DNA of 64,000 nucleotides, from NCBI GenBank assembly GCA_964019425.1, contig OZ025806.1, positions 558,001-622,000 of the forward strand, read 5' to 3'. Every line of letters starts with the position of its first letter. Position 1 is the first letter of the stretch. The notes under the pieces were generated by a model. The model saw only the letters and a list, made by a program, of their open reading frames with translations, ran no database searches and was not told the origin of the DNA. Source of the DNA: Flectonema sp. DT1601. Its lineage: Eukaryota. Positions 22,654-62,868 of the stretch are shown piece after piece. A program made the translations under genes and the position numbers.

Positions 22654-23044
22654 GAATTCGATAGAGTGGGAAGTAACGGACTGGGAGCTTTTGGCTCCTG
22701 CCCTATTCCCGATGTAAACTTTTCTTTTTATTTTTTTTTTTTTTTTTTTTAACAGGCCCAAAGGGCGACAATGACTGTTGCTGACCAAGGAATAATATTC
22801 AAATGAATTTTCGTTTCAAAGAAACGAACAGAATTAAGAGAGAGGCAGAGAGAAAAAAAAAAGAAAAAAAAAATATGAAGAGGAAGTAATCAAACATGAA
22901 AAAAAAAATAAAATAAAATATAAATAAAAAAACGTTGTATGAAAAAGGAAAAAAAAAAAAAAAAAAAAAAAAAAAGACCAGAAAAGGAAAGAGAAAATGA
23001 AAAGGTATAATATTATTGTGGGGATATGGGGATAGCAGGGAGAT

Positions 23045-23075
<31 letters not shown>

Positions 23076-25202
23076 TATTATTTAAAAAAAAGAAACAATC
23101 AGTTTAGCGTCTCGATCAGGACGGAAAATAGAAATTAATCGACATAGTCGATCGATAGAAAAAAAACAATGATAGCATTGTTTATTTTTTTTTTTTTTTT
23201 TTAAATCCTTTTAACCCTTACACCACCGGAGCTGATATATCAGTCTGAAAAAAAAAATTTTTTTTGCTAAGTGAAAATTTTGCATTTCTGAGTACAACGA
23301 TTTCACGGGAGAGGTATTATTGCGATGTCTTTTATGTTCCTTACGTGTTGCGCCGCAATAGTTTTTATTAAATGGTAAATTTTCCATTTGCTAAAGCTGG
23401 CCAAAATCAACTTGGGAAATATGTCGGTCCACAGTTCTGATGAGGATGCAACAGTATTTGTTAATCCATCGTCGGTGTGCTCCGATTCGTCACTTGACGA
23501 AGTATCTGACTCCAAATGGGGAGGGGAGGTAACAAGGGTTACCAAGAATAAAAACGCGTTTCCAAGAAACGTTAAAGATTGGAGTTGCACGCAAGTCGGA
23601 GCTGCAGGTTTTTGAGTTTTTCTTCGGATAGTCAGTTTTCCAGCTGATGAAGAAAAACTCTGAGGTCTATGCCTCACAGAGGGGAAGAAAATTTAAAACC
23701 AGTACGCAGGAGCGAAGGGCCTTTGTTGGCACAACACTACTGACGCGCGCCTCCCAATAAAATCTAACCTGGGGGATTCCTGGGGTTTGAATGACATGCT
23801 GTTGACCCCCCTGTTGTTCTTTCCGCAAGTGTTTTCACGTAATCGCTTTGCCGAAATACTGAGGAACTTACACTTCTCTGCGATATTACCTGCTCCCGAG
23901 CATGAGGATCCGAAGTGGAGACGTGTATTTTGAATTCCTTTATCCTGATGCGACGTGGGCATGGTGGAATTTGGACGGATAGTAGTGAATCTGGCTGGAG
24001 AAGCAAGAGATTCTTATCCTTCAAATTGGCTTTGTTTTGGGCAGCTTAGGTACATTTAAACGTACCAGAGCGGCACCAACACTATTAATAACACCATCAG
24101 TACCGCCTTCTCCACAATCAGTATCAATCCCTGATCGCCTCAAGCCAGCTTTTGGACACTACCCCGGAAAGATGGAAAAGGCTCGTCGGTGTGCAGTTCG
24201 CGCAAAGCGCGCACAATCACTAGATTACTGTGAGCGATGCAACCAAGCGCTTTGTGCTTACCCATATTTCAAAAGGTATCACATTCTCCAAAACTACAAA
24301 ATTCCTTGTGATGTTCCTAAACCGCCAACTTCCCAAAAATCCAGTATGCCAGGCTGGTGGGGTAAAGAGGTGGAAGTTTATAGATCCGGCCCAACACGGT
24401 CTGATCTAAGTAGCTGCACTGTTACTAATGAAGTTCCATGATCTGGGATCGATGTTATTTGTATTTTTCGAGCTTATCAACCCCGATGCGGTAATCCTCC
24501 TGTGTGTCTGAACCTGCTGTGCCATGATGCGGGTTGTTTGTGTATTTTCCGCGACCACAGAGGGCTTTTACAAGCTCAAAAAACAGGGAAAAAATCTGAT
24601 TTTTCGATTTAATATCGGCCGTGATTTGGCATTCTCTTTACTTGGGCTCCCTCTGACATGATGTTGCGCAGAAACATCATCCCTTTCAAAATACGGGAAG
24701 GGAATAACATGCAGCTGCTATGAATGGAAACCGTTGAGTACGTTATTGCGACACTGCCGACTTTGTTAGTTCTGCTGAATGTGCAACAACGCACCAAGGT
24801 ACGCACCGTTAGGTGTGTGGGTGACAGGTGTTATTGACCCGTAGGAGTAGTTGTGTCCGGCTTGGTACATAGGTTTTCTGGGGGGGTACCTTTTCTCTTT
24901 TTGAAAAAACAGTAAAATTTTGGACCCGTTGTTTTGGGGGTTCTTACGGTGGTGTAAGGGTTAATTATTTTAAAGAAAAAAATCAGTTTAGCGTCCCGAC
25001 CAGGACGGGAAATAGAAAATAATCGACATAGTCGATCGATAAAAAAAAAAACAATGATAACATTGTTTATTCCTTTTTTTTTTTTTTTTTATTATTCTTT
25101 TTATTTATTTTTAAAGAAAAAACAATCAGTTTAGCGTCTTGACCAGGACGGAAAATAGAAAGTGATCGACATAGTCGATCGATAAAAAAAACAATGATAA
25201 CA
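22654..25202 (-). mobile_element. Family A element (fixed end plus hairpin array), interrupted by piggyBac
   Basis: Head GAATTCGATAGAGTGGGAAGTAACGGACTGGGAGC.. at 22654. Array monomers lie on both sides of the TTAA insertion. Confidence 0.85.
23215..24960 (+). mobile_element. Decayed piggyBac-like transposon
   Basis: TTAA|CCCTTACACCACCG...CGGTGGTGTAAGGG|TTAA. Remnants include an acidic N-terminus (SSDEDA..DSSLDEVSD) and a Cys-rich C-terminal domain (HYP..RRCAV..YCERCNQALC..YH). Confidence 0.88.
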
Positions 25203-25492
25203 TTCTTCAGGTGTGAGTAGTTTTTTTGTTCTTGCTCTTCAGGGAGGGCCTTAGCCAAAAGCTAACAGTCCAAATCTCACCTGGTAACTTAACTCATTCT
25301 TTGTCAGTTTTGGCATCAAACCTGTAATGGTTACATTAACTACCATTTCAACAGGTTATTTACTTAATTATTTGTTCTAAAAGTTGCTAAGTATCTCATA
25401 TCCCCACAATAATATTATACCTTTTCATTTTCTCTTTCCTTTTCTGGTCTTTTTTTTTCTTTTTTTTCCTTTTTCATACAACGTTTTTTATT

Positions 25493-25524
<32 letters not shown>

Positions 25525-26006
25525 TTTTTCATGTTTGATTATTTCCTCTTCATTTTTTTTTTTCTTTTCTTTTCTTTCTTTTTATTTTTTTTTTTTTCTC
25601 TGCCTCTCTCTTAATTCTGTTCGTTTCTTTGAAACGAAAATTCATTTGAATATTATTCCTTGGTCAGCAACCATCATTGTCGCCCTTTGGGCCTGTTAAA
25701 AAAAATAAAAATAAAAAGAAAGTTTACATTGGGAATAGGGCAGGAGCCAAAAGCTCCCAGTCCGTTACTTCCCACTTTATCGAAACTCTCGCTTAGAAAT
25801 TTTTTATTTTTTTTATTTTCAGCTCAATTAGCTACAAAGCGTTACGGACGCTAAACTGATTGTTTTTTCTTTAAAAATAAAGGGAAAACCTACAGATCCA
25901 CCCCCAGGTTTGGAGAAACGTATACTACGGTCACGGCCTTGTGTAGCTTTTTTGACATTTTTTCCCAAATCGACAGCCCTCTATTCTGGGCGAGAAAATT
26001 TTTCAA

Positions 26007-27273: not shown

Positions 27274-27836
27274 GTCTTCGATTTTGCGGATTTAAACACA
27301 TATCCAGGGGTCAAAAAAGTTACACAAGGCCGTGACCGTAGTGTACGTTTCCCCAAACCTGGGGGTGGATCTGTAGGTTTTCCCAAAAATAAATAAAAAG
27401 AATTAAAAAAAAAAAAAAGGAATAAACAATGTTATCATTGTTTTTTTTTATCGATCGACTATGTCGATTACTTACTATTTTCCGTCCTGGTCAAGACGCT
27501 AAACTGATTGTTTTTTCTTTAAAATAATTAAAAGGATTTAAAAAAAAAAAAAAAAAAAAAAGAATAAACAATGTTATCATTGTTTTTTTTTCTATCGATC
27601 AACTATGTCGATTACTTTCTATTTTCCGTCCTGGTCGAGACGCTAAACTGATTGTTTCCTTTTTTTAAATAATAAATAAGAAAAAAAAAAAAAAAAAAAA
27701 AAAAAAGAGCATCTCCCTGCTATCCCTCATATCCCCACAATAATATTATACCTTTTCATTTTCTCTTTCCTTTTCTGGTCTTTTTTTTTCTTCTTTTTTT
27801 TCCTTTTTCATACAACGTTTTTTATTTATATATATA

Positions 27837-28615
27837 TCAGTCATTCCTTTTTTTTGCGAACAAAAAACACCTTTTTCTCACCGCCTGAGCAAGGTTACAC
27901 GATATGTTACTTTTGCTCGATTTTTTATTTTTTGGAATCGGGGAGGGTGCGATCTGTAAAATTAGGCATAGGGATATACTTTTAAACATGGTAAGTGCTG
28001 CTAAAAAGAGATAAACGTCTCTTTGCAAAATTTCCTTGGTACTACTCAATGATAAATATTAATCCCAGACCTGGAATGGAAAGATCGAGAAAATCTGAGT
28101 AAAAAACACCCCTAATTTTTTTTTTTTTACTATTTTTTCCCCCTTCTCCCGCACTCAAGAGATATGCACCTTTTTACTAACAAATCAACCCTAGTAGCAA
28201 TTATGTAAGGAAAATGTTGCATCTGTGGTGGTGATAATGATCATTAAGTATCAAAGTAGGTCCAAAAAGACAGGTAGTAACAATCTGCCTCACCGGCACA
28301 TGCTTAGTACTCTTTAATATATTTTTGCTCGATTATTTTTTCTCTGGATCCCGCTGGGCCAGCAGTGTAAAATTAGACCCTTCGATTAATTTTTAGTTTT
28401 GGTACTTGTCCACGGCTGAGCTGATTTAGTAAACCGCAAAATCTCTTTTCTCAATTCGGGAGACAAGTATGTGATGCCAACCTCCCGATTTCGGACGGAA
28501 ATGAACCCAACGATGCAGCGCATTAAAATGCCGCTTCGATCGAAATTTTTACAATTTTTTTTTGAAATTTTTTTTCAGTGTCCAGAATTTGTTCGCAAAA
28601 AAAAGGAATGACTGA
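27837..28615. mobile_element. ~780-bp non-autonomous TIR element in the (TA)n tract of a family A head
   Basis: TIR TCAGTCATTCCTTTTTTTTGCGAACAAA at both ends, flanked by TA. Confidence 0.85.
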
Positions 28616-29980
28616 TATTTTTTTTTTTTTTTTTTTTTCATGTTTGATTATTTCCTCTTCATTTTTTTTTTTTTTTTTTTCCTTTTCTTTCTTTTTTTTT
28701 TTTTTTTTTCTCTGCCTCTCTCTTAATTCTGTTCGTTTCTTTGAAACGAAAATTCATTTGAATATTATTCCTTGGTCAGCAACCATCATTGTCGCCCTTT
28801 GGGCCTGTTAAAAAAAAATAAAAAATAAAAAGAAAGTTTACATCGGGAATAGGGCAGGAGCCAAAAGCTCCCAGTCCGTTACTTCCCACTTTATCGAAAT
28901 TCACTAAGTGTTTCTCACTTAGATTTTTTTTTTTGCTTTTCAGCTCCTTAAAAGCTGCTAAGTATTTCTGCTAAGTGTTTCTCACTTAGAATTTTATTTT
29001 TATGTTCGTTTTCTATCCCTTCTCCAATCCCTTTTGTTCAAAAAAAGCGGGAGGAAATTCTCTCATTCACGCTAAGATGCACTCTGAACTTTGATTTTTT
29101 GATCTGAGTGTGAGGGAATGACCTGTTAGTGCATTGGGCATAGGCTGGGCTGCAGTTTAGATGTCTTAGGTGTTAATAGGGGGTTCCTCTTAGCATTTTT
29201 CTTTGTTCCCACCTTATGATTTTCTTGAAGAAAAAAAATAGAAGTCATAATGGTGCTTCCCTCTGGAAGGGTTGTAAGCCATGGTGTCCAACTAAATTAA
29301 AGGACAAGTCTGGGATAATCCCTGCCAGAGGGCGAGTATTCTACCATGGTTGAAATACTCTGGCAACTGATCTTCAATTTTATGTTGTTTGTTAGCTGCT
29401 GGTGTATCCTGATCATGTGTTGATACTTGCATTTTTTTATTTGTAATCTTCTATTACAATTCTCTTTCTGTTCTGGTCTGTTACTTCATTTGTCTTGTTT
29501 AACTTCAGTTATATCCATTTTACTTTTTATTGTTTCCCATCTACTTTTTATTTTCTATTAGTTCTGGTCAGAAACTCCTGGGCAGCAAGAAGGAAAGCAG
29601 TTTAGTACTTCTGGGTGTTTGGCATCACCCCCCATAGTGAGCAAGTACAACAGGTAGCATTGGTAGTCTGTTGATCCTGAGTGATCCCAGCTACAGTTTT
29701 GTTTTTCTTTCTTTTTTTTTAGAAGAAGATCAGGACATCCAAGCACTGCTGGATAGTTGCTGAATGCAGGGCCTGCCTGTGGCATTATAATAACAGGCTA
29801 AGTCATTTGTAGTTCATAGTTTACCTTTGATTTTATAACTTCACACAGGGTACTATGAACGATGAGAGATCCAGTGGGATCACTCAGGGTCTAGTAGAGA
29901 CCACCAATGTTGTGCGTTGATAGGCAAGGTGACCAACCTTGACATTCTTTCTTTTCTCTCCTGTTGTGACAAACACAAAA

Positions 29981-31380: not shown

Positions 31381-31595
31381 GAATTTCGATAAAGTGGGAA
31401 GTAACGGACTGGGAGCTTTTGGCTCCTGCCCTATTCCCGATGTAAACTTTCTTTTTATTTTTATTTTTTTTAACAGGCCCAAAGGGCGACAATGATGGTT
31501 GCTGACCAAGGAATAATATTCAAATGAATTTTCGTTTCAAAGAAACGAACAGAATTAAGAGAGAGGCAGAGAAAAAAAAAAAAAAAAAATATATA

Positions 31596-32373
31596 TCAGT
31601 CATTCCTTTTTTTTGCGAACAAATTCTGGACACTGAAAAAAAATTTCAAAAAAAAATTGTAAAAATTTCGATCGAAGCGGCATTTTAATGCGCTGCATCG
31701 TTGGGTTCATTTCCGTCCGAAATCGGGAGGTTGGCATCACATACTTGTCTCCCGAATTGAGAAAAGAGATTTTGCGGTTTACTAAATCAGCTCAGCCGTG
31801 GACAAGTACCAAAACTAAAAATTAATCGAAGGGTCTAATTTTACACTGCTGGCCCAGCGGGATCCAGAGAAAAAATAATCGAGCAAAAATATATTAAAGA
31901 GTACTAAGCATGTGCCGGTGAGGCAGATTGTTACTACCTGTCTTTTTGGACCTACTTTGATACTTAATGATCATTATCACCACCACAGATGCAACATTTT
32001 CCTTACATAATTGCTACTAGGGTTGATTTGTTAGTAAAAAGGTGCATATCTCTTGAGTGCGGGAGAAGGGGGAAAAAATAGTAAAAAAAAAAAATTAGGG
32101 GTGTTTTTTACTCAGATTTTCTCGATCTTTCCATTCCAGGTCTGGGATTAATATTTATCATTGAGTAGTACCAAGGAAATTTTGCAAAGAGACGTTTATC
32201 TCTTTTTAGCAGCACTTACCATGTTTAAAAGTATATCCCTATGCCTAATTTTACAGATCGCACCCTCCCCGATTCCAAAAAATAAAAAATCGAGCAAAAG
32301 TAACATATCGTGTAACCTTGCTCAGGCGGTGAGAAAAAGGTGTTTTTTGTTCGCAAAAAAAAGGAATGACTGA
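31596..32373. mobile_element. Second, inverted copy of the 27837-28615 TIR element
   Basis: Near-identical reverse complement, at the same position within the family A head. Confidence 0.88.
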
Positions 32374-32639
32374 TATATACAAATAAAAAACGTTTTATGA
32401 AAAAGGAAAAAAAAGAAAAAAAAAAGACCAGAAAAGGAAAGAGAAAATGAAAAGGTATAATATTATTGTGGGGATATGAGGGATAGCAGGGAGATGCTCT
32501 TTTTTTTTTTTTTTTTTTTTTCTTATTTATTATTTAAAAAAAGGAAACAATCAGTTTAGCGTCTCGATCAGGACGGAAAATAGAAATTAATCGACATAGT
32601 TGATCGATAGAAAAAAAAACAATGATAACATTGTTTATT

Positions 32640-32672
<33 letters not shown>

Positions 32673-33474
32673 TTTTTAATTATTTTAAAGAAAAAACAAT
32701 CAGTTTAGCGTCTTGACCAGGACGGAAAATAGTAAGTAATCGACATAGTCGATCGATAAAAAAAAAACAATGATAACATTGTTTATTCCTTTTTTTTTTT
32801 TTTTTATTCTTTTTATTTATTTTTAAAGAAAAAACAATCAGTTTAGCGTCCTGACCAGGACGGAAAATAGAAAGTAATCGACATAGTCGATCGATAAAAA
32901 AAACAATGATAACATTGTTTATTCTTTTTTTTTTTTTTTTTTTAATTCTTTTTATTTATTTTTAAAAAGAAAAAAAATGGAAAATAGAAATTAGTCAACA
33001 AAGTCGAACGATAAAAAAAAACAATGATAACATTGTTTATTCTTTTTTTTTTTTTTTTTTTATATTCTTTTTTATTAATTTTGAAAAAAAAAACAATCAG
33101 TTTAGCGTCTTGACCAGGACGGAAAATAGAAAGTAATCGACATAGTCGATCGATAAAAAAAACAATGATAACATTGTTTATTCTTTTTTTTTTTATTTTA
33201 AATTCTTTTTATTTATTTTTTAAAGAAAAAAAAACGGAAAATAGAAATTAGTCGACAAAGTCGAACGATAAAAAAAAACAATGATAACATTGTTTATTCT
33301 TTTTTTTGTATTTTTTTATATTCTTTTTTATTAATTTTGAAAAAAAAACAATCAGTTTAGCGTCTTGACCAGGACGGAAAATAGAAAGTAATCGACATAG
33401 TCGATCGATAAAAAAAACAATGATAACATTGTTTATTCTTTTTTTTTTTTTTTTTTTTAAATTATTTTTATTTA

Positions 33475-36689: not shown

Positions 36690-36728
<39 letters not shown>

Positions 36729-38821: not shown

Positions 38822-40113
38822 CAAATTTTGCTCTTCTTTCTGTTTATATTAAAACAAAAGAATGTCTACACCACCAATTGTGGAAATTCCGCATGTAGAA
38901 TCTGAGATGGATTTAGATTCAATTCTGTTTGAGGATTTGAGGACGGTGAGAGCACAATCACCACGTGCCACCATCGGGGAAGCAGGGACGTTTTGGGATC
39001 CCCAATCCAAAATGTCCGAAGAAATGATGAAGAACAATTCGTTGGCCTTGATTGGAAGAGAAGCAGTATATTGTATGAGGAAGGAAGGGGAATCAAGTTG
39101 GAATTGGTATTGTGGCTTATTGTCAATGGTGGGTAATATGGGGAGGGTAACCTTGTCAAATTCGACAAGTCTTTTAAGGGGTGTGTATCGACACACGGGG
39201 CCGGACGAAACGTTCGACTTTCCACATGCGGGCTTTGAATATGCCCATGTGATAAGCAAGGATGTGTATTGGGATGAGTGGTCAAAAAGGTTAGTTCTAG
39301 AAAATGAACAAAAGATGTTAGGCATGTGCCAAAAGGTAACTAATTTGGAATCGCAGGTGGCGTCATTGTTATCGCCACAGATGCATGGTGCGCAACCCCA
39401 GCCACAGGTGCATGGTGCGCAACCTCAGCCACAGATGCATGGTGCGCAACCCCAGCCACAGATGCATGGTGCGCAACCCCAGCCACAAATACAACAAGAG
39501 AGTAGTATGATGCAACAAATGATGGCACTATTATCGCAAAATCAACAATTATGTCAGATGCAGATACAACAAACAAACGAATTGTTAAAAAACAAGGGCG
39601 GCGTAAAATGCCAATTGTCACCGGAAAATGTGGATTGCATCGAATTTGAGCTGGCGTCAGAAGCAACGAATGTGTTGCAGTGGCGCAATATACTGATACA
39701 AGGAGGGGCGGAAAGATTACTCGATAAGTTGGAGAATAAATATTGGTTACCACATAGTGGCAAAGTAGCAACCCGTGAACTGAGAGAGTTAAGGGGAGCA
39801 TTTGAAGTAGTGCGAGACAACATCAAAGCCATGAGCGTATCAACTATAGACTGGGTCACTTCAAAGCCCCTTGTCAGGAGCATGAACAAGTCGCTAGAGA
39901 ACTTGATCATGAAGTGGCAGCTGAATTTCGATAAAGTGGGAAGTAACGGACTGGGAGCTTTTGGCTCCTGCCCTATTCCCGATGTAAACTTTCTTTTTAT
40001 TTTTATTTTTTTTAACAGGCCCAAAGGGCGACAATGATGGTTGCTGACCAAGGAATAATATTCAAATGAATTTTCGTTTCAAAGAAACGAACAGAATTAA
40101 GAGAGAGGCAGAG

Positions 40114-40144
<31 letters not shown>

Positions 40145-40235
40145 GAGAAAAAAAAATGAAGAGGAAATAATCAAACATGAAAAAAAAAAAAAAAAAAAAA
40201 TATATATATAAATAAAAAACGTTGTATGAAAAAGG

Positions 40236-40285
<50 letters not shown>

Positions 40286-40503
40286 CCAGAAAAGGAAAGA
40301 GAAAATGAAAAGGTATAATATTATTGTGGGGATATGAGGGATAGCAGGGAGATGCTCTTTTTTTTTTTTTTTTTTTTTTTTTTCTTATTTATTATTTAAA
40401 AAAAGGAAACAATCAGTTTAGCGTCTCGATCAGGACGGAAAATAGAAATTAATCGACATAGTTGATCGATAGAAAAAAAAACAATGATAACATTGTTTAT
40501 TCA

Positions 40504-40535
<32 letters not shown>

Positions 40536-40797
40536 ATTTTAAAGAAAAAACAATCAGTTTAGCGTCTTGACCAGGACGGAAAATAATAAGTAATCGACAT
40601 AGTCGATCGATAAAAAAAAAACAATGATAACATTGTTTATTCCTTTTTTTTTTTTTTTTTTATTCTTTTTATTTATTTTTAAAGAAAAAACAATCAGTTT
40701 AGCGTCCTGACCAGGACGGAAAATAGAAAGTAATCGACATAGTCGATCGATAAAAGAAACAATGATAACATTGTTTATTCTTTTTTTTTTTTTTTAT

Positions 40798-44730: not shown

Positions 44731-44763
<33 letters not shown>

Positions 44764-45085
44764 AAAAAAAAAAAAAATATGAAGAGGAAATAATCAAACA
44801 TGAAAAAAATAAAAAAAAAAATAAAATATAAATAAAAAACGTTGTATGAAAAAGGAAAAAAAAGAAGAAAAAAAAAAAAGACCAGAAAAGGAAAGAGAAA
44901 ATGAAAAGGTATAATATTATTTTGGGGATATGAGGATAGCAGGGAGATGCTCTTTTTTTTTTTTTTTTTTTATTTATTATTTAAAAAAAAGGAAACAATC
45001 AGTTTAGCGTCTCGATCGGGACGGAAAATAGAAATTAATCGACATAGTCGATCGATAGAAAAAAAAACAATGATAACATTGTTTA

Positions 45086-45120
<35 letters not shown>

Positions 45121-47817: not shown

Positions 47818-48341
47818 GGACAGCAGGGGGAAAGTTTGTTTCGTACCCCCCGGGTGCTTAGCGTCACCCTCCATGCGATGCTTGCGCAGGGAGAGCCAAG
47901 GGTCGAGAACCCTTGAGATTACCTTTGTTTCTTTTTGTGACTTTTTTTTTCGATAAAGTGAGAAGTAACGGACTGGGAGCTTTTGGCTCCTGCCCTATTC
48001 CCGATGTAAACTTTCTTTTTTTTTTTTTTTTTTTTTTTAACAGGCCCAAAGGGCGACAATGATGGTTGCTGACCAAGGAATAATATTCAAATGAATTTTC
48101 GTTTCAAAGAAACGAACAGAATTAAGAGAGAGGTAGAGAAAAAAAAAAAAAAAAAAAAAGAAAGAATAGAAAAAAAATATGAAGAGGAAATAATCAAACA
48201 TGAAAAAAAAAAAAAAAAAAATAAAATATAAATAAAAAACGTTGTATGAAAACGGAAAAAAAGAAAAAAAAAGACCAGAAAAGGAAAGAGAAAATGAAAA
48301 GGTATAATATTATTGTGGGGATATGAGGATAGCAGGGAGAT

Positions 48342-48372
<31 letters not shown>

Positions 48373-49045
48373 ATTTATTATTTAAAAAAAGGAAACAATC
48401 AGTTTAGCGTCTCGATCAGGACGGAAAATAGAAATTAATCGACATAGTCGATCGATAGAAAAAAAAACAATGATAACATTGTTTATTCTTTTTTTTTTTT
48501 TTTTTTTTTTAAATCCTTTTTATTATTTTTAAAGAAAAAACAATCAGTTTAGCGTCTTGACCAGGACGGAAAATAGAAAGTAATCGACATAGTCGATCGA
48601 TAAAAAAAAAACAATGATAACATTGTTTATTCCTTTTTTTTTTTTTTTTTTTTATTCTTTTTATTTATTTTTAAAGAAAAAACAATCAGTTTAGCGTCCT
48701 GACCAGGACGGAAAATTGAAAGTGATCGACATAGTCGATCGATAAAAAAACAATGATAACATTGTTTATTCCTTTTTTTTTTTTTTTTTTTATTCTTTTT
48801 ATTTATTTTTAAAGAAAAAACAATCAGTTTAGCGTCCTGACCAGGACGGAAAATTGAAAGTGATCGACATAGTCGATCGATAAAAAAACAATGATAACAT
48901 TGTTTATTCCTTTTTTTTTTTTTTTTTTTATTCTTTTTATTTATTTTTAAAGAAAAAACAATCAGTTTAGCGTCCTGACCAGGACGGAAAATTGAAAGTG
49001 ATCGACATAGTCGATCGATAAAAAAACAATGATAACATTGTTTAT

Positions 49046-49083
<38 letters not shown>

Positions 49084-50412
49084 TTTTAATTATTTTTTAA
49101 AGAAAAAACAATCAGTTTAGCGTCTTGACCAGGACGGAAAGTAGAAAGTGATCGACATAGTCGATCGATAAAAAACAATGATAACATTGTTTATTCTTTT
49201 TTTTTTTTTTTTTTTTTAATCCTTTTTATTATTTTAAAGAAAAAACAATCAGTTTAGCGTCTTGACCAGGACGGAAAATAGAAAGTGATCGACATAGTCG
49301 ATCGATAAAAAAACAATGATAACATTGTTTATTCTTTTTTTTTTCTTTTTTTTTTTTTTTTTTAACCTTTTAATTATTTTTTAAAGAAAAAACAATCAGT
49401 TTAGCGTCTTGACCAGGACGGAAAGTAGAAAGTGATCGACATAGTCGATCGATAAAAAACAATGATAACATTGTTTATTCTTTTTTTTTTTTTTTTTTTT
49501 TTTTTAATCCTTTTTATTATTTTAAAGAAAAAACAATCAGTTTAGCGTCTTGACCAGGACGGAAAGTAGAAAGTGATCGACATAGTCGATCGATAAAAAA
49601 CAATGATAACATTGTTTATTCTTTTTTTTTTTTTTTTTTTTTTTTTAATCCTTTTTATTATTTTAAAGAAAAAACAATCAGATTAGCGTCTTGACCAGGA
49701 CGGAAAATAGAAAGTGATCGACATAGTCGATCGATAAAAAAACAATGATAACATTGTTTATTCTTTTTTTTTTTTTTTTTTTAAATTCTTTTTATTTATT
49801 TTTAAAGAAAAAAAAAAAACGGAAAATAAAAATTAGTCGACAAAGTCGAACGATAAAAAAAAAACAATGATAACATTGTTTATTCTTTTTTTTTTTGTTT
49901 TTTTTTATATTCTTTTTTATTAATTTTGAAAAAAAACAATCAGTTTAGCGTCTTGACCAGGACGGAAAATAGAAAGAAATTGACATAGTCGATCGATAAA
50001 AAAAAACAATGATAACATTGTTTACTCTTTTTTTTTTTTTTTTTTAAATTCTTTTTATTTATTTTTTAAAAAGAAAAAAAAACGGAAAATAGAAATTAGT
50101 CAACAAAGTCGAACGATAAAAAAAAAAACAATGATAACATTGTTTATTCTTTTTTTTTTTATTTTTTTTTATATTTTGAAAAAAAAAAAAAAAAAAACAA
50201 TCAGTTTAGCGTCTTGACCAGGACGGAAAATAGAAAGTGATCGACATAGTCGATCGATAAAAAAAAACAATGATAACATTGTTTATTCTTTTTTTTTTTT
50301 TGGGAAAACCTACAGATCCACCCCCAGGTTTGGAGAAACGTACACTACGGTCACGGCCTTGTGTAGCATTTTCGACCCCAGAAGATTAAATAAAAAAAAA
50401 CTTTTTTTGCAT

Positions 50413-52529: not shown

Positions 52530-52631
52530 TTGAAACTTAAGGATTAATAACTAACGGGGGGTTAAAAAAAAAAATGACGCAACCGGGACTCGAACCGACG
52601 CAGCTGGAAAAAAATTGAGCGGGGAAAAAAG

Positions 52632-52703: not shown

Positions 52704-53114
52704 TTTCAAAAAATCGGCGCTCGGAATAGAGGGGCAAAGATTTTTGACACGAGCTTCACAAGGCCGTGACCGTAGTATACGTTTCTCCAAACCTGGGGGT
52801 GGATCTGTAGGTTTGCCCTTTTTTTTTTTAATCCTTTTTTTTTTTTTTAAAGAAAAAACAATCAGTTTAGCGTCTTGACCAGGACGGAAAATAGAAAGTA
52901 ATCGACATAGTCGATCGATAAAAAAAAAAACAATGATAACATTGTTTATTCTTTTTTTTTTTTTTTTAAATTCTTTTTATTTATTTTTTAAGAAAAAAAA
53001 AACGGAAAATAGAAATTAGTCGACATGGTCGAACGATAAAAAAACAATGATAACATTGTTTATTCTTTTTTTTATTTTTTTTTTTTATATTCTTTTTTAT
53101 TAATTTTGAAAAAA

Positions 53115-54900
53115 GTTGAATTTCCAGGTGAGATTTGGACTGTTAGCTTTTGGCTAAGGCCCTCCCTGAAGAGCAAGAACAAAAAAACTACTCACACCTG
53201 AAGAAAACATACACAAAGAACACACTGTAAGCTGTGTGTGTATTTTGTGTTTGTCACAACAGGAGAGAAAAGAAAGAATGTCAAGGTTGGTCACCTTGCC
53301 TATCAACGCACAACATTGGTGGTCTCTACTAGACCCTGAGTGATCCCACTGGATCTCTCATCGTTCATAGTACCCTGTGTGAAGTTATAAAATCAAAGGT
53401 AAACTATGAACTACAAATGACTTAGCCTGTTATTATAATGCCACAGGCAGGCCCTGCATTCAGCAACTATCCAGCAGTGCTTGGATGTCCTGATCTTCTT
53501 CTAAAAAAAAGAAAGAAAAACAAAACTGTAGCTGGGATCACTCAGGATCAACAGACTACCAATGCTACCTGTTGTACTTGCTCACTATGGGGGGTGATGC
53601 CAAACACCCAGAAGTACTAAACTGCTTTCCTTCTTGCTGCCCAGGAGTTTCTGACCAGAACTAATAGAAAATAAAAAGTAGATGGGAAACAATAAAAAGT
53701 AAAATGGATATAACTGAAGTTAAACAAGACAAATGAAGTAACAGACCAGAACAGAAAGAGAATTGTAATAGAAGATTACAAATAAAAAAAATGCAAGATC
53801 AACACATGATCAGGATACACCAGCAGCTAACAAACAACATAAAATTGAAGATCAGTTGCCAGAGTATTTCAACCATGGTAGAATACTCGCCTCTGGCAGG
53901 GATTATCCCAGACTTGTCCTTTAATCTAGTTGGACACCATGGCTTACAACCCTTCCAGAGGGAAGCACCATTATGACTTCTATTTTTTTTCTTCAAGAAA
54001 ATCATAAGGTGGGAACAAAGAAAAATGCTAAGAGGAACCCCCTATTAACACCTAAGACATCTAAACTGCAGCCCAGCCTATGCCCAATGCACTAACAGGT
54101 CATTCCCTCACACTCAGATCAAAAAATCAAAGTTCAGAGTGCATCTTAGCGTGAATGAGAGAATTTCCTCCCGCTTATTTTGAACAAAAGGGATAGGAGA
54201 AGGGATAGAAAACGAACATAACAATAAAATTCTAAGTGAGAAACACTTAGCAGAAACACTTAGCAGTTTTTAGGAGCTGAAAAGCAAAAAAAAAATCTAA
54301 GTGAGAAACACTTAGTAGAAACAATTTGTAGCTAATTAAGCTGAAAATAAAAAAATAAAAAATTCCTAAGTGAGAAATACTTAGCAACTTTTAGAACAAA
54401 TATTTCAGTAAATAACCTGTAATGATTAAACCATTACAAGTTTGATGCCAAAACTGACAAGGACTGAGTTGAATTTCCAGGTGAGATTTGGACTGTTAGC
54501 TTTTGGCTAAGGCCCTCCCTGAAGAGCAAGAACAAAAAAACTACTCACACCTGAAGAAAACATACACAAAGAACACACTGTAAGCTGTGTGTGTATTTTG
54601 TGTTTGTCACAACAGGAGAGAAAAGAAAGAATGTCAAGGTTGGTCACCTTGCCTATCAACGCACAACATTGGTGGTCTCTACTAGACCCTGAGTGATCCC
54701 ACTGGATCTCTCATCGTTCATAGTACCCTGTGTGAAGTTATAAAATCAAAGGTAAACTATGAACTACAAATGACTTAGCCTGTTATTATAATGCCACAGG
54801 CAGGCCCTGCATTCAGCAACTATCCAGCAGTGCTTGGATGTCCTGATCTTCTTCTAAAAAAAAGAAAGAAAAACAAAACTGTAGCTGGGATCACTCAGGA
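53115..54900 (-). mobile_element. Family C element: 1353-bp unit plus a ~430-bp partial tandem copy
   Basis: GTTGAATTTCCAGGTGAGATTTGGACTGTTAGC starts at 53115 and again at 54468. Confidence 0.88.
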
Positions 54901-56913
54901 AAATAGAAAGTAATCGACATAGTCGATCGATAAAAAAAAAAACAATGATAACATTGTTTATTCTTTTTTTTTTTTTTTTAAATTCTTTTTATTTATTTTT
55001 TAAGAAAAAAAAAACGGAAAATAGAAATTAGTCGACATGGTCGAACGATAAAAAAACAATGATAACATTGTTTATTCTTTTTTTTATTTTTTTTTTTTAT
55101 ATTCTTTTTTATTAATTTTGAAAAAAAAAAAAAAAACAATCAGTTTAGCGTCTTGACCAGGACGGAAAATAGAAAGTAATCGACATAGTCGATCGATAAA
55201 AATACAATGATAACATTGTTTAATCTTTTATAATTTTTTATTTTTTTTTTGTTTTAAAAAAAAAAAAAAAAAAACAAGCGGAATTGATCATAATGGGTGG
55301 TAGGGGTTGTTATAACTTCGTTTGAAAATTCTTCTTTTTTGATTTCTTTTTTTTTTTTTTTCTTTTTACAGGAGTTAAGATCACTTTCAGGAGACAACAC
55401 ATACACATTAACAAGAGCAGCAAGCAGAGTTGACACTATCAATTCAAATTTGAAATACCGGGAATTAATTTACAAGGAGGTATCTCAAGTGACTTGGTAT
55501 CTCTAGCGTGTCGGTATCTCTGGAGTGCTGGTATCTCGTATGTGCGTTGGTATCTCATGAGTGATGGTATCTCTTGTGCATTAGAGAAACGAAAAAGAAT
55601 GTCATGACCATGACGGAAGAATTGAGGAATTGAGTTAACATGTTCAATTTAACTTATTTAAACTTTTTTTTTTTTTAACAGACCGTAACTATTTGAAAAT
55701 AAAATGTAGATGGGAAACAGTGAAAAGTAAAATGGATGATAAAATTAAATGAGAAATATGACATAACAGACCAGATAGAGAGTATTAAAGGGAAATTGAA
55801 AAGGAAAAGAGAAACTAGGTTAACACTTATTTAAAATTAAGACCGGTTAGTCAGTTTAAGGTCTTGACTAGGACCAACAAAAAAGAAAGAAAAAAAATTA
55901 ACGATCAAGCTGAGCTGATCCTGTTTTTATTACAAATAGGGGAGCGGGAGGGATGGAAGGAATAGAGGAAAAAAAAAGAAAAGGTTGATCAATTGGATCT
56001 GATCGTCGAGAAGAAGAAATTATTTTAAAGGTTGATCGGTATAGCCGATCGTTGAGAAAAATAAACAGATATAAATAGGAATTTCGATAAGTGGGAAGTA
56101 ACGGACTGGGAGCTTTTGGCTCCTGCCCTATTCCCGACGTAAACTTTCTTTTTATTTTTTTTTTTTTTTTTTAACAGGCCCAAAGGGCAATCAGTTTAAA
56201 TTAAAAAAAGAAAAAAAGATTAACGATCAAGCTGAGCTGATCTTGTTTTTATTTAAAATTAGGGGAGCGGGAGGGATGGAAGGAATAAAGGAAAAAAAAA
56301 AAAAAAAGGTCGATCAATTGGATCTGATCGTCGAGAAGAAGAAAACAATTATTTATAAAAAAAAAGAAAAAAATGGTCGGTATAGCCGATCGTTGAGAAA
56401 AGAACAGATATAAATACAATCGGTTTTGGTGATCGACGAGTGGAGCGATCACTTGACAAGAAGGAAAAAGAAAGGACCGATTAATTGGGGCTTTGATTGT
56501 ATTCCCAAGGCATGTTTTTTTTTTTTTTTTTATTATTCAATTACATTATTATTATTTTTTTTTTTTTTTAAATTAATAATCACATTTTGTTCAAAAATAT
56601 TTCATATTAGAGTAAAAGAAAAAGAAAAAAAGAAATAAGAGAAAAAAAAAAAAAAAACCATTGCTGGCCCCCTCACCACTCATAGAGGATGAGGAGGCCA
56701 GTAAGGCGTCACTCAAATCTATGCCAAGCCTTGGGAACTTGGATTGGGGTTTAGACCATTTATAATTAACAATTAACAATTAACCTGATTAACGTTATGA
56801 TCTGACGGACATAAACATATCGATAAAATAATACAAACAAAAACGAACAATAAATAATAAATAAGCTAAAAAACTAAATAAACAAAGTGATGTGAAAGTA
56901 AGGAAAAAGAGAA

Positions 56914-58068
56914 TTACAAGGGGGTGGAGTCACCGTGAACGTCATCAGCAGAACATCTCCTTCGATTGTAACGATATCTTGATGGAGGGGTTCGTTTTTT
57001 CAGAGTTGAACGCTCAGACTTTCTCGGCGGAGTTTCATTTTCCTCATGTTCTTCTGTGTCTGGCGGACTCAAACCTTCTGCCCATGAAGCTAATTGGAAC
57101 TTCAGGGCCGCTATTTGAGACCGTGCCAAGGCGAGTTGAGCATTTAAATCGCTCGCCAGTCCCGTTAACATCATGGATTGCTCAAGCTGCTCTGCGTGAG
57201 TTGTACACCGTTGGTGATTCAGCTCCGAGAGGCGAAGTTGGGCATCCAAAAGTTGTTCTGAGAGCTCTGCCGCTTTCTCGTTTGTTTCGAGAGAGTCATC
57301 TACTGCTCGACAGTAGTTCTCGAGTAAGTCAATTCTACCCTCGGACCATTGTCTCGCAATAGGTGTATTCTCTTTAACGGAGATAACGTGACTCTCTTGT
57401 CGTAAAATCTTGGTCGGCGTGCGGTCGAGAGCTTCACTCTGCGGCATTGTCGGAGGAATTGAGGCTAGAGGACAAAGAGGGGTGATATAATTAAGGGTAG
57501 GGATAAGGGGTTTAATAAGAGGAGTAAAAAGACTACTCGTAGTTGTAAAGAGCGAGAGGTAGTTCTTTGCTATCTTCATCATAGCAACAGATTCATACAG
57601 AACGGGGGTTCGGGGGGAAACTTGTTGACTAAAGTGGGTCATACGGGGACGCGCGGCACGCAAACTCTCGACCTCCTGTTGAGTATAGAAAAGTCTTATT
57701 TTACTTTCTCTTTCCTCATTACATTTGGTCTCCAATTCGTTCGACAGAAGAACAAACCTTTGATGGTAATTAAAGAGCGCCATTTCCGATAGGTCTGCTC
57801 TCTGAGTCAGATTTGCGAGCTCACGTTTCCTGTAATCTTCCACTAAGTCATATTGTCGAACTAGTGCAGAAAGAGAAGTCTTCGATTCATCGCGTTCTGC
57901 TGTTAACCGTTGAATTACTCCTTCCAGAAGTTCATATTCTTTTCTATCTTTTTCAATAATTAAAACAGGGGGCGCAGGAGGAAGTGAGGATGGATCCTGG
58001 TTGGTAGCTTTGATCTCAACAGGTAATCCATTTAGTAACTGCTTGTCTTTCTCGAGGGAGGCTGACAT
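56914..58068 (-). CDS. Coiled-coil protein of block B (~384 aa from MSASLEK), basic C-terminus
   Basis: Long ORF that stays open in both copies despite substitutions. Confidence 0.7.
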   Translation of the reverse strand: MSASLEKDKQLLNGLPVEIKATNQDPSSLPPAPPVLIIEKDRKEYELLEGVIQRLTAERDESKTSLSALVRQYDLVEDYRKRELANLTQRADLSEMALFNYHQRFVLLSNELETKCNEERESKIRLFYTQQEVESLRAARPRMTHFSQQVSPRTPVLYESVAMMKIAKNYLSLFTTTSSLFTPLIKPLIPTLNYITPLCPLASIPPTMPQSEALDRTPTKILRQESHVISVKENTPIARQWSEGRIDLLENYCRAVDDSLETNEKAAELSEQLLDAQLRLSELNHQRCTTHAEQLEQSMMLTGLASDLNAQLALARSQIAALKFQLASWAEGLSPPDTEEHEENETPPRKSERSTLKKRTPPSRYRYNRRRCSADDVHGDSTPL

Positions 58069-58072
58069 CGCA

Positions 58073-58531: not shown

Positions 58532-59816
58532 ATTGGATTGCAGTGGCGCAACCTATCACCCCAACTGTTGGTATCTTTTTATTTTTTTTATTTAAAGAAA
58601 AAAGCAGGCTAAGTCGCCTGAGCTGGCATCGCCAGAATATTTAACTTCACATGGCAATGTCAGCTTGTGAAGGGATCCAGTTGGACCAAAGGTTTTCTCC
58701 CCCCACTCTATTTATCGTCATTGGTGCGCACCTTCGAACAGGAAGGCCAACATTGACGGAATTTTTTTTACTTCTCTTCCCAAGGTTGAACCTTGGGAAA
58801 AAAACAAACAATAAACACAGTGTAGACAAACACCCGCCGGACATCTGCAGAGCAGCGATCGATGTCGATGTCTTCGTTGTCGAACTTCCTGGCGTTTATG
58901 TTTTTGTTTTTAACAACAATACAACACCAACTAACAGGTTTGTCTCATTGCCCGTTCTTTCTTGTTTCCCTTTGCCGCCGGAAGAACGAAGGTCGACGGA
59001 GGTCCGAAGCATTGCTTGCGATGATGTTCCGGTATGTGTTGCGTCTCTGTTATTTGTTTGTTTCAACTCAATTGGTTCATCTCAGGTTTTAGAAGTCTTC
59101 GTCCTGTTCGATGGGAAGGGCCTGAATCAAAAGTTCACTGCCCCTATTCCTCTCCCAAATTTCTTATTTTTATTTTAAATTCTTTTTATTTATTTTTTAA
59201 AGAAAAAAAACTGAAAATAGAAATTAGTCGACAAAGTCGAACGATAAAAAAACAATGATAACATTGTTTATTCTTTTTTTTTTTTTTTATTTCTTTTTAT
59301 TTATAAAAAAAAACAATCAGTTTAGCGTCTTGACCAGGACGGAAAATAGAAAGTGATCGACATAGTCGATCGATAAAAAAACAATGATAACATTGTTTAT
59401 TCTTTTTTTTTATTTTAAATTCTTTTTATTTATTTTTTAAAGAAAAAAAAAACGGAAAATAGAAATTAGTCGACAAAGTCGAACGATGAAAAAAAACAAT
59501 GATAACATTGTTTATTCTTTTTTTTATTTTTTTTTTTTTTATTCTTTTTTATTAATTTTGAAAAAAAAAAAACAATCAGTTTAGCGTCTTGACCAGGACG
59601 GAAAATAGAAAGTAATCGACATAGTCGATCGATAAGAAAACAATGATAACATTGTTTATTCTTTTTTTTTATTTTAAATTCTTTTTATTTATTTTTTAAA
59701 GAAAAAAAACTGAAAATAGAAATTAGTCGACAAAGTCGAACGATAAAAAAAACAATGATAACATTGTTTATTCTTTTTTTTTTTTTTATTTTAAATTCTT
59801 TTTATTTATTTTTTAA

Positions 59817-62676
59817 CAGGAGTTAAGATCACTTACATGAGTTAACACAACACAGATACGAGAGTCGCAAACTGAGGTAACACTACCAATTCAACAAAAA
59901 ATAATCAGGATCGTACACAAGGAGGAGAGTTCATTCTACCTCTCATTGTCCTTGCTGGTATCTTAAGTGTCTTGGTATCTCTTGTGTGTCGGTATCTCGG
60001 AAGTGCTGGTATCTCGTATGTCGCCCTCTGGGCCTGTTAAAAAAAAAAAAAAATAAAAAGAAAGTTTACATCGGGAATAGGGCAGGAGCCAAAAGCTCCC
60101 AGTCCGTTACTTCCCACTCTATCGAATTCTGCGTTGGTATCTCTTGCGTGTTGGTATCTCTTGCACATAAAAAAAAAATTGAGTTAACATGATCAGTTTT
60201 ATTTAACATTAAAGACAGACCGGAACTATTTGAAAATAAAATGTAGATGGGAAACAGTGAAAATTAAAATGAATGATAAAATTAAATGAGATTTATGACA
60301 TAACAGACCATAATAAAAAAAGAGCATCTCCCTGCTATCCTCATATCCCCACAATAATATTATACCTTTTCATTTTCTCTTTCCTTTTCTGGTCTTTTTT
60401 TTTTCTTTTTTTCCTTTTTCATACAACGTTTTTTATTTATATTTTATTTTTTTTTTTTTTTTTCATGTTTGATTATTTCCTCTTCATATTTTTTTTCTAT
60501 TCTTTCTTTTTTTTTTTTTTTTTTTCTCTACCTCTCTCTTAATTCTGTTCGTTTCTTTGAAACGAAAATTCATTTGAATATTATTCCTTGGTCAGCAACA
60601 GTCATTGTCGCCCTTTGGGCCTGTTAAAAAAAAAAAAAAAAATAAAAAGAAAGTTTACATCGGGAATAGGGCAGGAGCCAAAAGCTCCCAGTCCGTTACT
60701 TCCCACTTTATCGAAATTCATAGAGAGTAATAAAGGGAAAAGGAAAACGGGAAGGGTTCATTCACTTAGTTAAAGTTAAGACCGATTAGTCAGTTTAAGG
60801 TCTTGACTAGGACCAACAAAAAAAAAAAAAAAAATAACGATCAAGCTGAGCTGATCTTGTTTTTATTAAAATAAGGGGAGCGGGAGGGATGGGAGGAATA
60901 AAGGAAAAAAAAAGAAAAGGTCGATCAATTGGATCTGATCGTCGAGAAGAAGAAGACAATTATTTTAAAGGTCGATCGGCATAGCCGATCGTTGAGAAAA
61001 AATAACCAGATATAAATACAATCAGTTTAAATTTAAAAAAAAAAAAAAAAAGATTAACGATCAAGCTGAGCTGATCTTGTTTTTATTAAAATAAGGGGAG
61101 CGGGAGGGATGGAAAGAATAAAGGAAAAAAAAAAAAAAAAAAAAAAAGGTCGATCAATTGGATCTGATCGTCGAGAAGAAGAAAACAATTATTTTAAAAA
61201 AAAATGATCGGTATAGCCGATCGTTGAGAAAAGAACAGATATAAATACAATCGGTTTTGGTGATCGACGAGTGGAGCGATCACTTGACAAGAAGGAAAAA
61301 AGAAAGGACCGATTAATTGGGGCTTTGGTTGTATTCCCAAGGCATGTTTTTTTTTTTTTTTTTTTATTATTCATTTACATTATTTTTTTTTTTTTTTTTT
61401 TAAATTAATAATCACATTTTGTTCAAAAATATTTCATATTAGAGTAAAAGAAAAAGAAAAAAAAAGAGATAAGAGAAAAAAAAAAAAAAAACCATTGCTG
61501 GCCCCCTCACCACTCATAGAGGATGAGGAGGCCAGTAAGGCGTCACTCAAATCTATGCCAAGCCTTGGGAACTTGGATTGGGGTTTAGACCATTTACAAT
61601 TAACAATTAACAATTAATCTGATTAACGTTATGATCTGACGGACATAAACATATCGACAAAATATTACAAACAAAACGAACAATAAATAATAAATAAGCT
61701 AATAAACTAAATAAACAAAGTGATGTGAAAGTAAGGAAAAAGAATTACAAGGGGGTGGAGTCACCGTGAACGTCATCAGCAGAACATCTCCTTCGATTAT
61801 AACGATATCTTGATGGAGGGGTCCGTTTTTTCAGAGTTGAACGCTCAGACTTTCTCAGCGGAGTTTCAATTTCCTCATGTTCTTCTGTGTCTGGCGGACT
61901 CAAACCTTCTGCCCATGAAGCTAATTGGAACTTCAGGGCCGCAATTTGAGACCGTGCCAAGGCGAGTTGAGCATTTAAATCGCTCGCCAGTCCCGTTAAC
62001 ATCATGGATTGCTCAAGCTGCTCTGCGTGAGTTGTACACCGTTGGTGATTCAGCTCCGAGAGGCGAAGTTGGGCATCCAAAAGTTGTTCTGAGAGCTCTG
62101 CCGCTTTCTCGTTTGTTTCGAGAGAGTCATCTACTGCTCGACAGTAGTTCTCGAGTAAGTCAATCCTACCCTCGGACCATTGTCTCGCAATAGGTGTATT
62201 CTCTTTAACGGAGATAACGTGGCTCTCTTGTCGTAAAATCTTGGTCGGCGTGCGGTCGAGAGCTTCACTCTGCGGCATTGTCGGAGGAATTGAGGCTAGA
62301 GGACAAAGAGGGGTGATATAATTAAGGGTAGGGATAAGGGGTTTAATAAGAGGAGTAAAAAGACTACTCGTAGTTGTAAAGAGCGAGAGGTAGTTCTTTG
62401 CTATCTTCATCATAGCAACAGATTCATACAAAATAGGGGATCGGGGGGAAACTTGTTGACTAAAGTGGGTCATGTGGGGACGTGCGGCACGCAAACTCTC
62501 GACCTCCTGTTGAGTATAGAAAAGTCTTATTTTACTTTCTCTTTCCTCATTACATTTGGTCTCCAATTCGTTCGACAGAAGAACAAACCTTTGATGGTAA
62601 TTGAAAAGCGCCATTTCCGATAGGTCTGCTTTCTGAGTCAGATTTGCGAGCTCACGTTTCCTGTAATCTTCCACTA
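59817..62676 (-). repeat. Block B copy 2, with short family A insertions at ~60021-60129 and ~60310-60719
   Basis: Collinear with copy 1 once the insertions are removed. Confidence 0.85.
61745..62676 (-). pseudogene. 5'-truncated second copy of the block B coiled-coil ORF
   Basis: Near-identical to 56914-57845. The N-terminus is replaced by the family A head at 62677. Confidence 0.8.
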
Positions 62677-62868
62677 GAATTTCGATAAAGTGGGAAGTAA
62701 CGGACTGGGAGCTTTTGGCTCCTGCCCTATTCCCGATGTAAACTTTCTTTTTATTTTTATTTTTTTTTAACAGGCCCAAAGGGCGACAATGATGGTTGCT
62801 GACCAAGGAATAATATTCAAATGAATTTTCGTTTCAAAGAAACGAACAGAATTAAGAGAGAGGCAGAG

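Follow-up and report, generated by a model that had tools for sequence, protein, structure and literature searches.

How do repeats that have nothing else in common come to end in one and the same small structure, and what might that structure serve? The question is raised by a stretch of 64,000 nucleotides (nt) from Flectonema sp. DT1601 (contig OZ025806.1, positions 558,001 to 622,000; the whole stretch is called the window below, and positions count from its first letter), in which three families of dispersed repeats, termed A, C and D, carry the same 27-nt hairpin near one end. A preliminary description, made from the letters alone, had taken this motif for the candidate cis-signal of an undescribed mobile system. 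We find that three otherwise unrelated families of inserted repeats carry a 3'-terminal module whose conserved core is this hairpin, and that the copies of family A are real insertions, precise at the hairpin end; the hairpin may serve as an RNA signal for a reverse transcriptase encoded elsewhere.

Three repeat families with a common terminal motif

The pattern AGGGC-N6-CAAAA-N7-GNCC, searched for over the whole window with at most one mismatch, occurs at 17 sites, all of them exact, where 0.06 are expected by chance and the maximum in 100 shuffled sequences was one. The identical 17 sites were recovered by a scan for pairing alone (5 + 4 pairs and at least four of the five loop letters; 20 shuffles gave 0-2 sites) and by a covariance model run over the window with filters off (E <= 8.3e-9, the next matches having E >= 1.1). 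Eleven sites belong to family A, four to C and two to D, in the following copies:

Family A
22654..23212, minus strand: motif 22678-22704; 3' end adjoins a GC-rich block, 5' end is the start of a satellite unit
25393..25788, plus strand: motif 25737-25763; 5'-truncated, inside a long C copy
27385..28902, plus strand: motif 28851-28877; contains a miniature inverted-repeat transposable element (MITE 'E') at 27838-28614
31381..33474, minus strand: motif 31406-31432; MITE 'E' at 31597-32372, host another A copy
39923..40804, minus strand: reference copy; 25-nt tail 39923-39947, motif 39948-39974, then an A-rich run, the GCCCTTTGGGC hairpin, a T/CT-rich unique part and, at the 5' side, three satellite units
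44540..47808, minus strand: long copy; motif 44564-44590; about 20 satellite units at the 5' side
47942..50301, minus strand: long copy; motif 47970-47996; 3' end adjoins the end of repeat F; its satellite is broken by a Mutator-like element (MULE) and continues at 52819-53114
56078..56188, minus strand: short copy; motif 56103-56129; 111 nt including one extra C
60022..60129, plus strand: short copy; motif 60079-60105; 108 nt
60311..60719, plus strand: motif 60668-60694; 409 nt
62677..63572, minus strand: motif 62702-62728; 3' end meets the middle of a duplicated gene

Family C
20370..20750, plus strand: motif 20700-20726; 51-nt internal deletion; 3' end adjoins the GC-rich block
25204..25295, plus strand: motif 25245-25271; 92 nt; the 5' start of a long C copy follows directly
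53113..54465, minus strand: longest copy, about 1353 nt; motif 53137-53163; 65-bp (base-pair) tandem units near the 5' end; 3' end adjoins satellite
54466..54900, minus strand: about 434 nt, 5'-truncated; motif 54490-54516

Family D
42098..42729, minus strand: motif 42122-42148; 3' end in satellite
58532..59167, plus strand: motif 59117-59143 (TGAAT variant); 3' end in satellite of opposite orientation

All 17 elements end sharply a short way past the motif; the distance is 17-25 nt overall, with 24-25 nt for A copies, 24 nt for C copies and 17-24 nt for D copies. Beyond this point similarity among the members of a family stops, and on the other side of the motif it extends over variable lengths, giving copies of 108-111 bp to more than 3 kb (satellite included) in A and of 92 to about 1353 nt in C. 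The fixed end is joined to at least 14 different flanks. Eleven A copies end in GAAATTC (six), GAATTC (three), GAAACTC (one) or, in the copy 47942..50301, GAAA followed by six extra A; the terminal letters of the families are ...ATTC in A, ...ACTC in C, and ...AAAT or ...TAT in D. Compared in register, different families agree at 20-22 of the 27 motif positions, at 13-21 of 60 positions upstream and at 6-10 of 24 downstream, and outside the motif they are unrelated.

The preliminary description had already held that one motif is common to the three families, that it lies near a fixed terminus and that the opposite end is variably truncated. All of this stands, as do the examples that it quoted (A at 39948-39974 as reverse complement, C at 53137-53163, D at 42122-42148 and the TGAAT variant at 59117-59143). 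The range that it gave, 22654..62745, takes in most copies and leaves out the C copy with its motif at 20700; its statement that A and C both end near GAAATTC is exact for 6 of 11 A copies, while the other five differ, and in C this string or a variant is located 6 nt before the element end.

Long A copies consist, from 5' to 3', of one to about 20 satellite units, a unique part of about 410 nt, an A-rich run and the tail. The satellite that forms their 5' part comprises about 92 AT-rich units of 115-140 bp with three internal palindromes each, spread over 22900-64000 (e.g. 45021-47808 and 48344-50301), and most arrays have a single orientation. Both D copies have the identical 5' start (TGGATT), and full-length D and long C have no 5' terminus in common with each other or with A. 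Elements also follow one another directly. The 434-nt C copy with its motif at 54490 lies immediately upstream, head-to-tail, of the longest C copy, and the 92-nt copy with its motif at 25245 stands directly before a long C start, which makes two partial tandems; the A copy ending at 28902 passes directly into a long C fragment (28903-29980). Tail-to-head junctions are thus found twice between C and C, with different truncation lengths, and once between A and C.

A few sequences resemble the families in part. At 19928-20006 there is a C-like fragment in which the similarity ends within the hairpin loop (AGAGCCTTAGCCAAAA) and gives way to unrelated letters; the fragment could be a relic or else a pointer to how the tail arose. 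The 51-nt gap in the C copy 20370..20750 was considered as a spliced-out intron, which would have been RNA evidence, and was rejected, as GT...AG ends are absent. A repeat of about 124 nt, F (47818-47941, plus strand; 42730-42853, minus strand), has a 7-bp hairpin, CAAGGGT-CGAGA-ACCCTTG, located 26 nt before a sharp end and different from the A/C/D motif; one copy adjoins the 5' start of D and the other the 3' end of A. It may be that F is one more such family, built in the same way but around another hairpin.

Structure and covariation of the hairpin

Alignment of the 17 motifs gives a two-tier hairpin: a lower stem of 4 bp and an upper stem of 5 bp are separated by a 1x2 internal loop and capped by CAAAA, with the terminal and the internal loop constant in all families. 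Across the four distinct sequences, with nine pairs each, 36 of 36 cells are paired. Three of the nine pairs, all in the upper stem, show compensatory changes on both sides, and two more vary by G-C/G-U only: one lower-stem pair is G-U in A and C and G-C in D, and the top pair is U-G instead of C-G in the D copy with its motif at 59117. The observed covariation was matched by 6 of 500 shuffles, and sliding the partner by 1-3 columns left 25-47% of the cells paired. Read on the opposite strand, 16 of the 17 copies would have A-C mismatches in place of the wobbles. The earlier claims that the upper stem covaries and that the wobbles favor the motif strand are therefore both borne out, the former for three pairs in four distinct sequences.

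When the motif strand is folded as RNA, the minimum-energy structure contains the hairpin in each of the three families; that of the opposite strand lacks it, with folding energies at z-scores of -0.5 to +0.3. The predicted folds of the motif strand add an outer helix specific to each family (GGGAA/UUCCC in A, GGGAA/UUCCU in D, and the longer-range CAGGUG.GA/UC.CACCUG in C), which leaves a short single-stranded 3' end. Within family A (11 copies), 0 of 27 motif columns are variable compared to 18 of 74 in the flanks (Fisher p = 0.003, a value inflated by the ragged ends of the alignment and of qualitative use only). These data support the view of the motif as a structure-conserving hairpin at a fixed element terminus.

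Filled and empty sites

Two paralogous segments of the window, r1 (55351..57845) and r2 (59800-62676), are 96% identical, and three insertions of family A (60022-60129, 60311-60719 and 56078-56188) are each present in one segment and absent from the other. The copy at 56078..56188 has an empty counterpart at 61018/61019 and one extra C at its junction; the copy at 60022..60129 has an empty counterpart at 55543/55544, with the assignment of one T ambiguous; and the counterpart of the copy at 60311..60719 is a single G (55774), which corresponds to a 1-nt loss of the target. A fourth comparison is provided by the copy at 25393..25788, for which uninterrupted C sequence exists around 54370 (minus strand), and in which the element end and the target overlap by an ambiguous 3 nt (TTC/CTC) at the 3' junction. 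All four comparisons show insertion, exact at the 3' end (...GAA(A)TTC or a variant), and none of the four sites has a target-site duplication. The target junctions (G^T, A^(G)A, G^T and T^T(TC)) reveal no common sequence, and the three polymorphic insertions sit in AT-rich non-coding DNA.

Further evidence comes from the two A copies that bear MITE 'E' (27385-28902 and 31381-33474). They are identical up to the exact 3' end of A and then diverge; therefore A and the MITE were recopied as a unit. In addition, a separate public sequencing data set holds a contig in which the A tail begins from the same base and is joined to a different flank. Taken together, these observations support the mobility of the elements. 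The filled and empty sites, the partial tandems of C and the recopied composite of A and the MITE are new in this analysis.

MITE 'E' itself is 777 bp long (27838-28614 and 31597-32372), has perfect 24-nt inverted repeats starting with CAGT, and is flanked by TA within a TA-rich stretch; from its sequence it looks like a Tc1/mariner-type element. These TA-flanked inverted repeats are the reason for which 'E' was rejected as a part of the hairpin system.

Search for an enzyme, a known RNA and relatives

Pfam was searched with 216 open reading frames (ORFs) of the window, in three sets: 15 selected ORFs of at least 120 amino acids (aa), 53 ORFs of at least 90 aa in 19-64 kb, and 148 of the 265 non-low-complexity ORFs of 50-89 aa from 19 kb on and outside the satellite. 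Among these 216 ORFs there is no reverse transcriptase or endonuclease, and likewise no Rep, helicase, GIY-YIG or tyrosine recombinase domain, in agreement with the earlier expectation that the enzyme is not encoded here. Two MULEs sit within the satellite. One (50302-52818) is bounded by 66-nt inverted repeats that are 95% identical (50302-50367 and 52753-52818), and its ORF combines MULE, SWIM and MuDR DNA-binding domains. The second, a different element (about 33507-36889), has inverted arms rich in repeats; its ORF, at 34413-36029, contains a MULE domain. Their transposases were considered as the mobilizing enzyme and rejected, as both ORFs lie inside inverted repeats of their own; A, C and D have one conserved end only and no MULE-type terminal inverted repeats, and the hairpin is absent from the MULE ends.

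Rfam gave no match at gathering scores over the whole window, and at E <= 5 over 19000-64000 it gave no match on the elements to any ribozyme (hammerhead, hepatitis delta virus-like or other), small nuclear RNA, spliced-leader RNA or tRNA-like structure. The rows for NPPA-AS1_3 on the A-rich part of A (19-23 bits against a cut-off of 55) were taken as chance.

Public contigs were searched with AGGGC-N6-CAAAAG-N4-C-N-G-N-CC followed by AAAT 12-20 nt later, a demand that could miss true relatives. Among the 69 matches (2 viral and 67 metagenomic) none has a fully paired upper stem and five have four of the five pairs, which is the chance level. Among public sequencing runs, the best share no more than 0.2-0.3 of the words sampled from the window, and matches in two RNA runs are confined to low-complexity sequence at 40099-40130. 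In the literature searched, the three 15-nt stem-loop strings do not occur, and the papers on diplonemid transposable elements and retrotransposons describe none of the A, C or D elements. The available part of a paper on diplonemid introns contains nothing resembling the motif (PMC12621601).

The host is likely a diplonemid. The closest relatives of a histidine-phosphatase ORF in the window are found in EukProt protist transcriptomes, one of them labelled 'Sspe_', a label that probably stands for the diplonemid Sulcionema specki.

A 3'-tail signal for a reverse transcriptase?

We put at about even the chances that the hairpin is the 3'-tail RNA signal of non-autonomous retroposons, by which a stringent-type reverse transcriptase with its gene elsewhere in the genome would bind them. 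In this scenario the A, C and D elements would be transcribed, and the enzyme would read the loop by its sequence and the stem by its shape. It would probably be of the non-LTR (non-long terminal repeat) type, i.e. that of long interspersed nuclear elements (LINEs), perhaps with a restriction-like endonuclease whose cuts in the two strands are almost opposite. Synthesis of complementary DNA (cDNA) would begin at a fixed distance past the hairpin, on the nicked target; frequent early stops would leave 5'-truncated copies, and when the enzyme, having reached the 5' end of a template, occasionally carried on at the 3' end of another, tail-to-head chimeras and partial tandems would result. The variable 5' ends of A and C, the one A-tailed copy and the tail-to-head junctions are points in favor of reverse transcription. 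Near-blunt cleavage of the target would explain why target-site duplications are absent, and the 3-nt overlap, the extra nucleotide and the 1-nt target loss would be typical of untidy joining of cDNA. Near-opposite strand cuts and template jumping are properties of R2-like and Penelope-like enzymes, to which the missing target-site duplications and poly(A) also point; Penelope-like elements are noted, in addition, for partial tandems.

Analogous recognition is known from stringent LINEs, in which, according to the available sections of the publications, a 3' stem-loop is bound, an internal loop or bulge is essential, and the stem is read generally and the loop specifically (PMC1636434, PMC4176376). 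A further point in favor comes from the only published nuclear genome of a diplonemid, in which, as far as the accessible text goes, about 2500 reverse-transcriptase gene models stand against more than 60 ORFs of DNA transposons (PMC10161547).

A number of observations weigh against this proposal. None of the four filled/empty comparisons shows a target-site duplication, which insertions driven by LINEs mostly produce, and only one copy of 17 (47942..50301) has anything like a 3' poly(A) or short tandem repeat. Long A copies bear kilobases of satellite, which a retroposon would not usually carry. The starts of the two shortest A copies (108 and 111 nt), which belong to different subfamilies, differ by no more than 3 nt and fall at the GCCCTTTGGGC hairpin; this near-coincidence resembles a defined end rather than random truncation. 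An RNA polymerase III (Pol III)-type head was not found (no tRNA, and no Rfam match at E <= 5 over the 5' parts of A, C and D); therefore the elements are not classical short interspersed nuclear elements (SINEs). The partner enzyme, as described above, is absent from the 216 ORFs scanned. Finally, the structural case is good in kind and thin in numbers, because the covariation is based on four distinct sequences and the folding energies of the motif strand are unremarkable (z-scores of -0.5 to -1.9).

It is because of the lacking target-site duplications that a route through DNA has to be kept alive. We consider it unlikely that the hairpin is the subterminal 3' signal of a transposon of the Helitron-like or another HUH single-strand DNA type, with the variable ends due to imprecise choice of the second end. 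Such an origin would agree with insertions that are all exact at the hairpin end and free of duplications, with a hairpin that is subterminal on the strand with the fixed 3' end, with families that share their termini only, and with the joint presence of internal satellite, a gene fragment joined to an element end and head-to-tail arrangements; internal arrays, gene-fragment junctions and head-to-tail arrangements are often reported for Helitrons. The hallmarks of Helitrons, however, are a 5'-TC and a 3'-CTRR terminus, insertion between A and T, and a hairpin about 10-12 nt from the end, whereas the termini found here are different, none of the four targets is A^T, and the hairpin is 17-25 nt away from the end. 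Moreover, the 5' termini of full-length D, long C and A are all unlike, an added A-run at the 3' end, an extra nucleotide and a 1-nt target loss occur in one copy each, and no Rep or helicase domain was detected in the 216 ORFs scanned. Helitron-like ORFs do exist in Diplonema papillatum, as stated in the accessible part of its genome description (PMC10161547).

Decidedly unlikely, in our opinion, is a partnership with a Penelope-like element rather than a LINE, in which a reverse transcriptase is combined with a GIY-YIG nuclease and the hairpin would be the RNA priming signal. Partial tandems, 5' truncation and variable or absent target duplications are Penelope-like traits, and all of them have counterparts here, including a truncated copy upstream in both C tandems (54490 before 53137, and 25245 before the long C copy). 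However, template jumping by other reverse transcriptases, as known for R2, explains the tandems equally well, no hammerhead or other ribozyme was detected by Rfam at E <= 5 in 19000-64000, and neither of the two expected domains is encoded in the ORFs scanned. It is very improbable that the opposite strand is the functional one, with a short exon and a GT...AG intron (an 'introner'), or with a gene for a spliced-leader-like or another small RNA starting from the fixed end. Read in this direction, A has about 20 nt, then GTAAC...(~85 nt)...TTTTTAACAG and then GCCC, and C has CAG|GTGAGA 15 nt from the fixed end; but D has no GT at that place and C no matching acceptor. The A-C mismatches, the absence of the hairpin from the best folds of that strand, the negative Rfam result and the position of the three polymorphic insertions in AT-rich non-coding DNA argue in the same direction. 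Hardly more credible is the explanation of the sharp ends as breakpoints of recombination or duplication in a satellite-rich region, with the hairpin as fragile or recombinogenic DNA. The region does nest satellite, duplications and inverted duplications, and several of the 'ends' coincide with boundaries of duplicated blocks, but units of 108-409 bp stand clean within collinear paralogous sequence at four sites, the same end is joined to all the different flanks counted above, and the contig of the other data set adds a further flank from the same base.

Comparison with known systems

The preliminary description had spoken of an undescribed mobile system, and this part of it we would not maintain: the anatomy fits the known sharing of 3' tails by non-autonomous retroposons and a stringent reverse transcriptase, as documented in the available sections of the literature (PMC1636434, PMC4176376), and therefore the kind of system is probably ordinary. 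With UnaL2/UnaSINE1 of the eel and ZfL2-1 and ZfL2-2 of the zebrafish, as far as the same sections describe them, the elements studied here share unrelated bodies with a common short 3' hairpin tail, an internal loop or bulge, a constant loop, a stem kept by its shape, and 5' truncation (PMC1636434, PMC4176376). They differ from these stringent LINE/SINE pairs in the absence of a terminal short repeat or poly(A), of target-site duplications at the four sites and of a Pol III head, and in their satellite cargo; and, unlike in the vertebrate pairs, the host is a euglenozoan protist, and no autonomous partner was seen in the window. On our preferred reading this would be a known LINE/SINE logic in a new, little-studied lineage.

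Non-LTR elements of the R2 type and their internally deleted derivatives have precise 3' ends without poly(A) and are recognized by the structure of the 3' untranslated region; near-blunt cleavage, tiny deletions, extra nucleotides at junctions, 5' truncation and end-to-end template jumping are characteristic of them. The elements described here resemble them in the precise ends without poly(A), the lack of duplications, the irregular junctions, the truncation and the end-to-end chimeras. On the other hand, the R2 group is mostly site-specific, unlike the four sites here, which have no common sequence, and no ORF of this type was found in the window. Among Euglenozoa, the trypanosomatid pairs ingi/RIME and L1Tc/NARTc offer the precedent of non-autonomous, LINE-dependent retroposons without a Pol III head, but they have a poly(A) end, target-site duplications and a common 5' signature, none of which is found here. 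Helitrons and Penelope-like elements each match a part of the anatomy, with the discrepancies listed above.

The published genome of D. papillatum contains many reverse-transcriptase ORFs and some MULE and Helitron ORFs, about half of it is repeat, and, according to this source, its transposable elements, non-coding parts included, still await rigorous description (PMC10161547). In this context the 27-nt covariance model provides a searchable cis-signal for cataloguing non-autonomous families and for finding the autonomous partner, and the activity of the system could be dated, as three A insertions postdate a duplication whose copies have since diverged by 3.5%. Diplonemids rank among the most abundant eukaryotes of the sea. 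Should the partner turn out to be an ordinary LINE, the result is a matter of routine annotation; should an unusual enzyme prove responsible for insertions that form tandems and leave no duplication, they would offer a new model of template choice. It is tempting, albeit unlikely, to think of a diplonemid-specific mover that acts without target-site duplication, either a reverse transcriptase of an uncharacterized clade or a single-strand DNA enzyme other than that of Helitrons, which would select any transcript or strand with the two-tier CAAAA hairpin, start 17-25 nt past it, string templates together, and build satellite-rich islands between gene clusters as well as chimeras with gene fragments.

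The surroundings of the elements

The window has the character of eukaryotic nuclear DNA, with a G+C content of 37%. A repeat island extends from about 20 kb to its end, and 47% of the window positions have matches at other places in the window.

Between the C copy with its motif at 20700 and the A copy 22654..23212, which face inward, lies a GC-rich block (20751-22653; 1.9 kb, about 60% G+C as against 37% in the window), the edges of which are exactly the 3' ends of these two copies. The frames that match change along its plus strand: a ubiquitin hydrolase is matched weakly (E 1.4e-4, below the cut-off), and the N-terminal domain of RNase H1 at 22042-22308 (E 1.4e-7, above the cut-off). An isolated stretch at 26313-26448 matches positions 2832-2984 of the model for eukaryotic large-subunit ribosomal RNA (42.5 bits, E 6.6e-7), which brings to mind the 28S pieces reported to lie scattered in D. 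papillatum, as mentioned in the accessible part of the genome paper (PMC10161547).

Several genes meet the tail of A. A duplicated ORF of unknown function occupies 56914-58113 and 61745-62676; its second copy is without the 5' part, and the break is exactly at the 3' end of the family A copy 62677..63572, which has the same orientation. The stop-to-stop frame at 61745-62833 continues from this A element into the duplicated gene, the intact paralog of which is that at 56914-58113. Two long plus-strand frames without a Pfam match, 38853-40037 and 43538-44662, enter the reverse complement of an A tail before their stop codon, and it is possible that A insertions replaced the natural 3' ends of both genes.

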